44,746 nt of DNA from a virus. Below are positions 37,037 through 37,813 of this stretch, piece by piece. The notes under the pieces were generated by a model. The model was not told the DNA's origin, made no database searches, and saw only the letters and a program-made list of their open reading frames with translations. The stretch is taken from positions 1-44,746 of the IMG/VR virus record IMGVR_UViG_3300045988_129544, one strand, 5' to 3'. Position 1 is the first letter of the stretch, and each line of letters begins with the position of its first letter. Both the position numbers and the translations under genes were made by a program.

Positions 37037-37070
37037 ATGACTTGCAATTATCGTGGGAGTGAGTTAATAT
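37037..37070 (+). promoter_or_regulatory. conserved promoter-like cassette, copy E (-35 TTGCAA 37042-37047, 17-nt spacer, -10 TAATAT 37065-37070)
   Basis: ATGACTTGCAATTATCGTGGGAGTGAGTTAATAT. The ATG of the next ORF overlaps the -10 box. Confidence 0.5.
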
Positions 37071-37410
37071 GCTTATAAAGTACCTGCTTCTTGCAGCGCG
37101 GGTGTGGGATGGTTGGGATGAATCGAAACATCCGCGTAAGTCTAACGGGCAGTTTAGTGCTGGCGGTAGAACTTCCCAATCACCGCTCAGGCGTGCGGCT
37201 GAGGTTGTAAAGCCGAAGCGTAAGAGCAGAAAATCTAGTAAGATTACACCAGCTGAGCGTGAGCGTGTAACTCATGAAATCAGCACATGGTTCCATGGGC
37301 GGTTTGATGGTCTGCATAAAAGTTCTATTGCCGTAGGAAATTACGTTTATCTATTTACCATCAATGAGTATGGTGATTATGATATTTATTCTAAAATTTT
37401 GCTGAAATGA
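37069..37410 (+). CDS. hypothetical protein with WDESKHPRKSNGQFSAGG motif (paralogue of the 42388 ORF)
   Basis: 113 aa. GGGAG lies 9 nt before ATG 37069. Confidence 0.6.
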   Translation: MLIKYLLLAARVWDGWDESKHPRKSNGQFSAGGRTSQSPLRRAAEVVKPKRKSRKSSKITPAERERVTHEISTWFHGRFDGLHKSSIAVGNYVYLFTINEYGDYDIYSKILLK

Positions 37411-37418
37411 GGCATATT

Positions 37419-37628
37419 ATGGAAGAACAACTTAGAGAAGCATTAAAAAAAGTCCCTCGCTATTATGAGGATTTTGAGACTGCTGTAGTTTTGCTGTTGG
37501 AGGATAACGAGGAAGCCATGCGCGAATTAATAGCGTTTATTGCTTCCTCTCCTGAAGCACGAGTTGATGATGTGCTTGATATGGCTGAAGAACTGTCTGA
37601 TCTTGAGGAGGCTGATGCCGATGAGTGA
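37419..37628 (+). CDS. small highly acidic hypothetical protein
   Basis: 69 aa from ATG 37419 (alternative start at 37407). The tail is Glu/Asp-rich. Confidence 0.55.
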   Translation: MEEQLREALKKVPRYYEDFETAVVLLLEDNEEAMRELIAFIASSPEARVDDVLDMAEELSDLEEADADE

Positions 37629-37779
37629 AAAATCCTCTGGTGGAGCACGTCGTGGCGCAGGTCGTCCGAAGCTGCCGCCTGAACTTAAATCAAAACGCAA
37701 GCATTACAACTGGTACGTCACGGAAGAAGAGCGTGCGTTCCTGCTGGAGCAGCTTACTGAATATCGAAAAAATCACTAA
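37621..37779 (+). CDS. 52-aa basic protein with RRGAGRPK motif (possible DNA-binding)
   Basis: ATG 37621 lies 9 nt after GAGGAGG and overlaps the upstream stop. Confidence 0.5.
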   Translation: MSEKSSGGARRGAGRPKLPPELKSKRKHYNWYVTEEERAFLLEQLTEYRKNH

Positions 37780-37783
37780 TGTA

Positions 37784-37813
37784 AACCTCGAGCTTAATGG
37801 CTCGGGGTTTTTC
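37784..37813 (+). terminator. intrinsic terminator closing the three-ORF unit
   Basis: AACCTCGAGC-ttaatg-GCTCGGGGTT followed by TTTC. Confidence 0.75.

Follow-up and report, generated by a model that had tools for sequence, protein, structure and literature searches.

Two small and otherwise unrelated proteins encoded by the virus record IMGVR_UViG_3300045988_129544 of IMG/VR share a short peptide with the signature W-D-E-S-x-H-P-R-x-x-N-G-x-F. The entire record, a stretch of 44,746 bp hereafter called the window, was analyzed. Comparison of the two open reading frames (ORFs) with public sequence data shows that this peptide, here termed the tag, delimits modules: It accompanies effector-type domains that are encoded in, or fused to products of, the portal-MuF-protease part of the phage head gene cluster, and the two ORFs of the window are stand-alone members of this class of tagged cargo. 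We infer that tag-carrying modules enter the capsid and are delivered into the host together with the DNA, and that the tag mediates their loading, their release, or both. Known examples of such systems are polyvalent proteins, MuF toxins, and effectors packaged in the head; the tag is apparently undescribed.

The sequence-only reading of this DNA had reported the shared signature and had described the C-terminal parts of the two proteins as unrelated, and both statements are borne out. A six-frame scan of the window for the pattern W.E..HPR...G.F yields exactly two matches, at nucleotides 37114 and 42475, and the mean number of matches in 200 shuffles is zero. When the two proteins are compared by BLASTP, the alignment is confined to 15 residues of the tag, 10 of which are identical (E = 2e-6). 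One detail of the original signature is not general, in that the Asn of its NG dipeptide shows no conservation outside this phage group when a consensus of 433 instances is examined. For the same reason, self-cleavage at Asn-Gly was rejected as a function of the tag.

Neither ORF matched a Pfam family, and their only match in PHROGs is phrog_30637, a family of portal-tag-DUF2213 fusions to which no function is assigned. Predictions made by AlphaFold2 from family alignments give both proteins the same plan, wherein a short, amphipathic N-terminal leader helix (LLLAAR in the protein encoded at 37069, here cargo 1, and TATNLARLRAY in the second protein, cargo 2) is followed by a low-confidence segment and then by a folded C-terminal domain. 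In both proteins the predicted local distance difference test (pLDDT) values are 40-55 over the leader, tag, and linker, and 85-90 in the C-terminal domain. The linker is Gly/Ser-rich or basic, and the 113-amino-acid (aa) cargo 1 carries an extra helix, SPLRRAAE, between tag and domain. As modeled, the tag is in a disordered linker and not within a fold.

With its invariant His, Arg, and Glu residues, the tag might contribute to an enzyme active site or to a folded domain that the two proteins have in common, and the sequence-only reading had acknowledged that an active site of this sort would undo its proposal. We rejected this idea and judge it extremely unlikely because the tag is predicted to be disordered and to make no contacts with folded domains, lies outside Pfam domain boundaries and ahead of dozens of unrelated domains, and has no match in Pfam or the Protein Data Bank (PDB). 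Conservation of the motif in homologous phages, on which the same proposal depended, was observed in that relatives keep both leader and tag.

Distribution and consensus of the tag

A survey of the motif across phage proteins, which had been suggested when the motif was first noticed, reveals that the tag is widespread. A profile was built from 20 tag regions and searched against 1.84 billion cluster representatives, and at a cutoff of E ≤ 1e-3 the tag was found in 2,407 protein clusters. The top of the resulting list is biased toward multicopy proteins and consists of giant proteins as long as 7,334 aa, with up to 18 stretches in a single protein that match the profile; in the 7,334-aa protein, a stricter regular expression finds 15. 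The median distance between tags is 265 aa. The consensus of 433 instances reads [DE]-[WF](94%)-[DEN]-E(96%)-x-x-H-P-R-x-x-x-G-[RKQ]-[FW]-[GTA]-x-G-G-G and follows a stretch rich in Ala, Arg, and Leu. The H-P-R, G, and aromatic positions of this consensus were fixed by the search pattern, which leaves the remaining positions as the independent observations. The tag is represented neither by a Pfam model nor by a PDB entry.

Other search strategies were less productive. A tblastn comparison of the tag with phage genomes returned only a handful of matches for what is a very short query, and the proteins recovered by a homolog search from the tag alignment were all 30-90 aa long, apparently through a limit of the method or because these are fragments, and were uninformative about architecture. 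The search of cluster representatives was used instead.

Three positions of the tag recur. It occurs between the effector domains of giant polyvalent proteins (ADP-ribosyltransferases [ARTs], NUDIX, Zeta toxin, PBECR, LPD3, and Acb1), directly after portal or MuF domains, and at the N terminus of small proteins whose genes neighbor those for portal, MuF, or protease. Tags bracket Pfam domains and are not found inside them. For example, tags at residues 209 and 415 flank an ART-PolyVal domain (249-403) in protein P0082, and tags at 61 and 329 flank an ADPrib_exo_Tox domain (126-271) in P0090. In P0094, a Pyr_redox_2 domain (581-867) stands between tags at 479 and 942, the second of which is followed by a Zeta_toxin domain (1073-1229). 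P0091 carries a MuF domain (429-512) and then an ART-PolyVal domain (573-695), with tags at 534 and 719.

Among GenBank phages, the tag is present in C-terminal extensions of portal proteins, as in a Helicobacter prophage (portal, tag, then LPD3) and Xanthomonas PhiXhv-5. The Pseudomonas phages Orimi and Orisa are also tagged. In Burkholderia Bups phi1 it is located at the N terminus of an LPD3 protein that is encoded ∼0.5 kb 3′ of MuF. The Pfam model for LPD3 begins after the tag. A scan of IMG/VR with a back-translated pattern, which provided an unbiased sample, identified at least 120 loci, of which 117 are in frame within a substantial ORF (122 ORFs). Two classes of protein are apparent at these loci. 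In the first, the tag falls within the first ∼60 residues. Members of the second are 570-750 aa long, carry the tag at approximately residue 470-590, and are preceded by a terminase-sized neighbor, which makes them recognizable as portals with an extension.

The domains and neighbors at these loci point to the head module. Among 102 tag-bearing proteins are matches to Phage_portal_3 (20), LPD3 (12), PBECR1 (eight), ADPrib_exo_Tox (seven), DUF2213 (six), NUDIX (four), Zeta_toxin (three), Portal_Mu (two), and Acb1 (one). Upstream neighbors with a Pfam match (98 examined) are mainly large terminases (∼14), portals (∼14), MuF (eight), and Phage_min_cap2 (four), and those downstream (82 examined) are mainly MuF (11), DUF2213 (six), Peptidase_S78_2 (three), and Phage_cement (two). 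In iterative local searches seeded with the window proteins, 16 loci extended for 3 kb or more to either side; MuF is present in 14 of these, portal_3 in 12, and DUF2213 in 12, all on the same strand.

Exchange of cargo among close relatives

Relatives of the window phage derive from human-gut metagenomes. The closest contigs belong to metagenome bins that are mutually inconsistent (E. coli, Ruminococcus, and Bacteroidaceae) and gave no host assignment, and more distant relatives are Clostridia prophages. No near-identical DNA was found among GenBank phages or complete E. coli genomes.

Two slots in these genomes hold tagged genes. The slot between portal and MuF contains one or two genes in contigs L003 and L010-L013, all of which begin with MDKTxxNLxRLRxYDxxW[DE]ExxHPRAxNGxFTSG and continue with a Gly/Ser linker. 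The C-terminal modules that follow are unrelated or shuffled among relatives. For example, a 277-aa protein of L012 has a module like that of the window followed by a further module, with SPKSPLRQAAE between them. The same short element, with the pattern [KS]-P-L-[RQK]-x-A-A-E, is present in cargo 1 of the window (37180-37203) and precedes further modules inside cargo proteins; it occurs in the window, L003 (8426-9226), L010 (6464-6970), L011 (5809-6369), and L012 (6392-7225). A similar KPLAKAAEEG is present in Pseudomonas phage PB1 gp18, in the linker from the portal to an InPase-like C-terminal domain, and the main tag is absent from that protein.

The second slot, 5′ of the ParB-methylase gene, is occupied by one of two gene pairs. 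The first consists of the 113-aa protein and an acidic 69-aa ORF (window, L001, L010, and L011), and the second consists of a 410-aa ADPrib_exo_Tox protein and a Cys-rich 76-aa ORF (L003 at 1623-3096, L004, and a 5′-truncated copy in L013). The acidic ORF always accompanies cargo 1 and is replaced by the Cys-rich ORF when the cargo is the ADP-ribosyltransferase. Because cargo 1 covaries with the small downstream gene, the two suggest an effector-immunity or effector-chaperone pair in which the acidic ORF is a candidate immunity protein or chaperone. In L012, the cassette found upstream of cargo 1 (see below) leads straight into the middle of the Cys-rich gene, as would be expected after a deletion of the cargo.

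The cargo proteins of both pairs open with MLIRxLxLAARxxD, and the 410-aa protein shares the leader MLIRPLILAARILD with the 113-aa protein. In the ADP-ribosyltransferase of L003, L004, and L013, the tag is replaced by NPENWRTINGAKVHLDGDKNIDGGAG. This protein and P0015 carry NPENWRTINGAKVHLDxxxxIDGGAG in place of the tag, and because the same element also occurs between the tags of some polyvalent proteins, the two elements look interchangeable.

A fused arrangement is found in L139 (CAVCLW010000033.1), an E. coli-binned metagenome contig of a very close relative whose MuF protein is 96% identical. It has no separate tagged gene; its 654-aa portal (3499-5463) instead has an extra C-terminal domain that is attached via a degenerate tag (AEHDTRGRFTGNG). 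The reading frame of the L139 large terminase is broken by an inserted 220-aa ORF. Because the same slots hold exchanged cargo, and because L139 has the fused form, comparison of these contigs indicates that the cargo genes are accessory and modular, and that fused and unfused forms are present within one phage lineage.

The precision of this exchange raises the question of whether the tag is simply a recombination boundary for the shuffling of cargo, in the manner of the VENN and Rhs demarcation sequences, with little biochemical role. C-terminal modules are exchanged exactly 3′ of leader plus tag among close relatives, and the DNA of the two tag copies in the window is identical at 18 of 20 positions over the core. 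However, at the invariant residues P, R, and G every synonymous codon is used, among loci that range from 34% to 75% GC, and the residues preferred at positions left free in the search pattern agree with those of the profile matches. For these two reasons, the constraint is judged to act on the peptide and not on the DNA, and the pattern matches are considered genuine. DNA-level recombination was therefore rejected as the main explanation, and we consider it very unlikely.

Possible roles of the tag

We favor the proposal that the tag is a combined head-loading and processing signal on injected effectors, and we consider this reasonably probable. Leader and tag would engage a component of head assembly while the procapsid is formed, which could be the portal/MuF complex or the DUF2213 protease- or scaffold-like protein. 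The tag would probably also be a cut site for the maturation protease, given that we take its [WF]-x-E to resemble the hydrophobic-x-Glu sites of T4-type prohead proteases. An effector domain would then be loaded and subsequently freed for ejection from its carrier, whether portal, MuF, or a neighboring module of a polyprotein. The variable C-terminal domains would be the effectors, as their genomic context suggests, and the small gene 3′ of cargo 1 would encode the candidate immunity protein or chaperone.

The sequence-only reading had proposed that a shared targeting or interaction module, linked to the head or to MuF, could be attached to different effector domains. Its architecture has held up with respect to the linker, the swapped C termini, and the head-gene neighbors, and the mechanism lies outside this support. 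Release by cleavage is attractive because portal-fused cargo must be cut to leave the virion, and because polyvalent proteins carry approximately one tag per module. Docking is attractive because many proteins that lack a portal or MuF domain, including giant ones, start with leader plus tag. The long invariant HPR...G.F also resembles a binding epitope more than a cleavage site.

In a rival proposal, the tag is a protease recognition site only, and entry into the capsid depends on the leader helix or on covalent attachment to portal or MuF. The tag would then mark where the maturation protease, or a protease embedded in the polyvalent protein, is to cut. This would account for the occurrence of about one tag per module, for tags directly after portal and MuF domains where release is needed, and for the presence of [WF] (94%) and Glu (96%) at fixed positions upstream of HPR. 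Genes of the DUF2213 or S78_2 protease type are adjacent or fused, and proteolytic processing of polyvalent proteins has been proposed previously (Iyer et al., PMC5512222). However, protease sites do not usually have a conserved span of ∼14 residues located largely on the prime side, and the tag co-occurs with different protease families. Moreover, some proteins carry the tag at residue 3-10, where cleavage would be pointless, although some of these may have miscalled starts or be fragments. On balance, a role in cleavage only is unlikely.

Several observations also weigh against a combined loading and processing signal. Docking alone leaves unexplained why portal- and MuF-fused cargo retains the tag, and cleavage alone leaves unexplained the conserved prime-side H-P-R...G-x-F and the tags that begin from residue 3-5. 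Several portal families and two or more protease families are found together with the tag, so no universal partner suggests itself. In PB1, a head module of this type comes with no tag, and L139 joins portal and cargo through a degenerate tag only. In addition, searches with both ORFs and the tag profile found no solved structure that contains the tag, and the C-terminal domains had no significant structural or sequence match in Pfam or by Foldseek. A stronger version of our proposal, in which the tag is necessary and sufficient for arbitrary proteins to be loaded into portal/MuF-type procapsids, cut free, and injected, is doubtful.

Alternatively, the tag might not be an assembly signal but act only after injection, in the host cell, as a short linear motif that binds a conserved bacterial factor, or it might offer a grip by which unfolded modules are threaded through the channel of portal and tail. 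Its conservation across different hosts, across 34-75% GC, and across several portal families would fit a universal partner, and its predicted disorder when on its own and its presence as one tag per effector module are also compatible with such a role. Yet the settings in which tagged proteins occur are closely confined to head modules, whereas a host-binding motif should serve the effectors of conjugative elements as well, and no candidate for a host partner is known. The accompanying domains are of the types listed as phage-specific by Iyer et al., and not of the conjugative-element types (PMC5512222). We consider action after injection to be quite unlikely.

Head packaging has been inferred for effectors that are fused to, or encoded beside, MuF or portal (PMC5512222, PMC9503650, PMC5576092), and several known systems can be compared with the tagged proteins. 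The closest functional analog of the tag, as judged from this comparison, would be the leader of T4 internal proteins. The prohead protease cuts this leader off at a hydrophobic-x-Glu site. The T4 proteins Ip1-3 are unrelated proteins, packaged in the head and injected, that share only the N-terminal packaging leader, are encoded at a variable hotspot, and disable host defenses (PMC12373910). A shared N-terminal leader on otherwise unrelated proteins from a variable locus, as in Ip1-3 and Alt, is also what the window ORFs exhibit. The T4 leader sequences differ from those that precede the tag, and the window head is composed of portal_3, MuF, DUF2213, and Major_capside family proteins. Unlike the T4 leader, the tag is longer, has the invariant HPR...G.F and a Gly-rich linker, can also be internal, repeated, or located after portal and MuF, and is found in head lineages other than that of T4.

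The tag is also embedded in polyvalent proteins of the kind defined by Iyer et al. in 2017, with ART-PolyVal, LPD3, PBECR, InPase, ddrB-ParB, Zeta, and NUDIX domains, and in fusions to portal or MuF. As with those proteins, the window ORFs are located among virion genes, at 42421 between portal and MuF and at 37069 on the 5′ side of the genes for the ParB-methylase and the small and large terminases. Polyvalent proteins have 2-15 distinct domains, whereas each window protein has one small folded domain and resembles a “solo” version. The shared sequence module is the tag, which appears up to 18 times in proteins with ART-PolyVal, InPase, LPD3, and PBECR domains. The main text of that study (PMC5512222) defines globular domains and does not mention a tag between them.

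MuF polymorphic toxins of temperate phages resemble the tagged proteins in that variable C-terminal effector domains are linked to MuF, and in fusions the tag lies between MuF and ART. In the window, MuF is instead encoded by a separate gene (42870-43709). Cognate immunity genes of such toxins are said to lie downstream, and the toxins are reportedly sometimes encoded separately. The 69-aa ORF, which accompanies the 113-aa cargo and gives way to the Cys-rich 76-aa ORF beside ADP-ribosyltransferase cargo, may be such an immunity gene. No description of the tag was found in the literature, including the main texts of Iyer 2017 and Jamet 2017, although supplementary alignments may hold it; the words “motif” and “linker” are absent from the main text of the latter (PMC5576092).

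Short demarcating peptides are familiar from other delivery systems. VENN in CdiA and PxxxxDPxGL in Rhs proteins are located between the delivery part and hypervariable toxin domains, and the Rhs peptide is also a site of self-cleavage. The tag differs from these in its unrelated sequence, in its association with a phage capsid rather than a secretion system, and in being repeated many times in one protein.

The proteins that are injected from capsids before genes are expressed remain largely unmapped outside of a few model phages. They are first-line weapons against host defense and include anti-restriction proteins, ADP-ribosyltransferases, and Acb1, which acts against the cyclic-oligonucleotide-based antiphage signaling system (CBASS). 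A tag that is widespread and easy to test would make injected phage proteins predictable from sequence, such that injected proteomes could be read from genomes and metagenomes. It would also help to explain the organization, and possibly the processing, of giant polyvalent proteins, and would allow chosen proteins to be loaded into phage particles for delivery. If the stronger version of our proposal is true, the injected proteomes of thousands of phages would be delimited by the presence of the tag, and giant polyvalent proteins would be true polyproteins. Finally, it points to small unannotated domains as candidate anti-defense effectors, of which the two C-terminal domains in the window are examples.

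Organization of the window

The features of the window are listed in Table 1. The window is a circular assembly of ∼44.6 kb in which a 119-bp direct repeat forms both termini (1-119 is the same as 44628-44746). Its head module is assigned to the E217/PB1 type on the basis of sequence. Relatives of the DUF2213 protein carry the PHROGs label “head maturation protease,” and the homologous gp24 of phage Pa193 was described in a cryo-electron microscopy study as a putative scaffold that is possibly cleaved (PMC11456595). Scans of the window with Rfam and for tRNAs gave no match.

Table 1. Coordinates of tag-related, regulatory, and head-module features in the 44,746-bp window
Feature	Coordinates	Strand	Remarks
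Cement protein	360-875		
Major capsid protein	897-1940		Major_capside family
Cassette copy 1	19889-19927	+	After terminator-like hairpin, 5′ of unrelated ORF
Cassette copy 2	36445-36483	+	After terminator 36408-36439; ∼30 nt 5′ of Shine-Dalgarno sequence and ATG (36514) of unrelated small ORF
Cassette copy 3	37033-37071	+	ATGACTTGCAAT[AT]AT-N9-GAGTTAA[CT]AT; final three bases serve as start codon for the 113-aa ORF
Cargo gene 1	37069-37410	+	113 aa, isoelectric point (pI) 10.0; leader MLIKYLLLAARVWDG, tag WDESKHPRKSNGQFSAGG, SPLRRAAE, basic linker, folded C-terminal domain
Tag copy 1	37114-37167	+	Residues 16-33, W-D-E-S-K-H-P-R-K-S-N-G-Q-F-S-A-G-G; pLDDT ∼50
Second short delimiter, SPLRRAAE	37180-37203	+	Residues 38-45, predicted helix; recurs before further modules in cargo of relatives
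Folded C-terminal domain, cargo 1	37240-37407	+	Residues 58-113; two helices and three strands; pLDDT 85-89
Very acidic 69-aa ORF	37419-37628	+	pI 4.05, 23 Asp + Glu
Basic 52-aa ORF	37621-37779	+	pI 9.9; GGARRGAGRPK, AT-hook-like
Terminator-like hairpin	37783-37810	+	12 pairs, then T-rich tail; closes the unit
ParB_N + N6_N4 methylase fusion	37831-39132		Pfam; nuclease-like ParB_N domain fused to DNA methyltransferase; directly 5′ of terminase genes; kept in all relatives
Small terminase candidate	39125-39547		
Large terminase	39538-40887		Terminase_6N, Pfam
Portal protein	40880-42355	+	Phage_portal_3, E = 1.3e-117; its end corresponds to the point at which fused portals in other phages run on into tag and cargo
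Cassette copy 4	42352-42390	+	Overlaps portal stop codon
Cargo gene 2	42421-42813	+	130 aa from MDKT (141 aa from 42388); between portal and MuF genes; leader helix, tag, Ser-rich linker, folded C-terminal domain without assigned function
Tag copy 2	42475-42525	+	Residues 19-35 (numbered from MDKT), W-D-E-S-E-H-P-R-A-E-N-G-R-F-T-S-G; pLDDT <50
MuF-family head morphogenesis protein	42870-43709	+	Phage_Mu_F, E = 3.5e-16
DUF2213 (Pa193 gp24-like) protein	43706-44746	+	Continues across circular junction to base 347

Cargo gene 1 had been described as part of a self-contained unit of a promoter, three ORFs, and a terminator that adjoins the packaging genes. This unit is present, with the 113-, 69-, and 52-aa ORFs closed by the hairpin, and it is located directly 5′ of the genes for the ParB-methylase and the small and large terminases. 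The leader of cargo 1, MLIxxLLLAAR, is conserved at the protein level. Its C-terminal domain has no Pfam match and no significant PDB match by Foldseek, and the model gives weak Foldseek matches to RelE, ParE, and PfiT chains (E = 0.5-1.5, TM-scores of 0.3-0.4; matches to the RelE/ParE fold are also given as E = 0.2-1.5). We treat the likeness to RelE and ParE as a weak, nonsignificant lead only. The C-terminal domain of cargo 2 likewise has no significant Foldseek match in the PDB, and a match to AcrF1 is too weak to use.

The basic ORF varies independently of the cargo, and in L012 and L013 the same segment is fused to another N-terminal domain and forms the C-terminal half of a 122-aa protein. 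This GGARRGAGRPK ORF may belong not with the cargo pair but with the packaging genes, as a DNA-binding accessory. What L001 has in place of the basic ORF is a 76-aa protein with GGARKGAGRPKG, encoded upstream of the cargo.

The two tagged ORFs had also been reported to lie behind the same 34-nt cassette, with the ATG in an identical position. A cassette does precede both, with 27 of 34 positions identical (79% over 39 nt), but it is not specific to them. It is a four-copy element, A[TC][GA]ACTTG[CT]AAT[AT]AT-N9-GAGTTAA[CT]AT, and every copy comes after a terminator or stop codon. Relatives retain the element at corresponding sites; copy 3, for example, is kept in L001, L003, L004, and L010. 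The copies at 19889 and 36445 contain no ATG, and those at 19889, 36445, and 42352 are ∼30 nt 5′ of a Shine-Dalgarno sequence and ATG. The element behaves as a promoter-like sequence in its geometry, for which there are two readings, TTGCAA-17-TAAYAT and an extended −10 element, TGcAATAAT. At 37069 the end of the cassette is the start codon, which fits poorly with the reading TTGCAA-17-TAAYAT.

The claim that both ORFs start at the cassette ATG stands for the first and probably fails for the second. At 37069 this ATG is the sole possible start, with an in-frame TGA at 37060. For cargo 2, the start is probably at 42421 and not at the ATG of 42388 because most homologs are called from MDKT, relatives carry a GGAGG Shine-Dalgarno sequence before that ATG, and in L012 and L013 the cassette ATG lies in a different reading frame from the cargo 2 protein.

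Upstream of the cargo 1 unit, the interval 36787-37032 is a dense noncoding stretch that is conserved in L003 and has no match in Rfam. It contains two σ70-like promoters (36788-36816 and 36887-36916), each with 10 of 12 matches, and three hairpins or terminators (36872-36908, 36925-36949, and 36976-36994). This stretch could encode small RNAs or an attenuator located ahead of the cargo unit.

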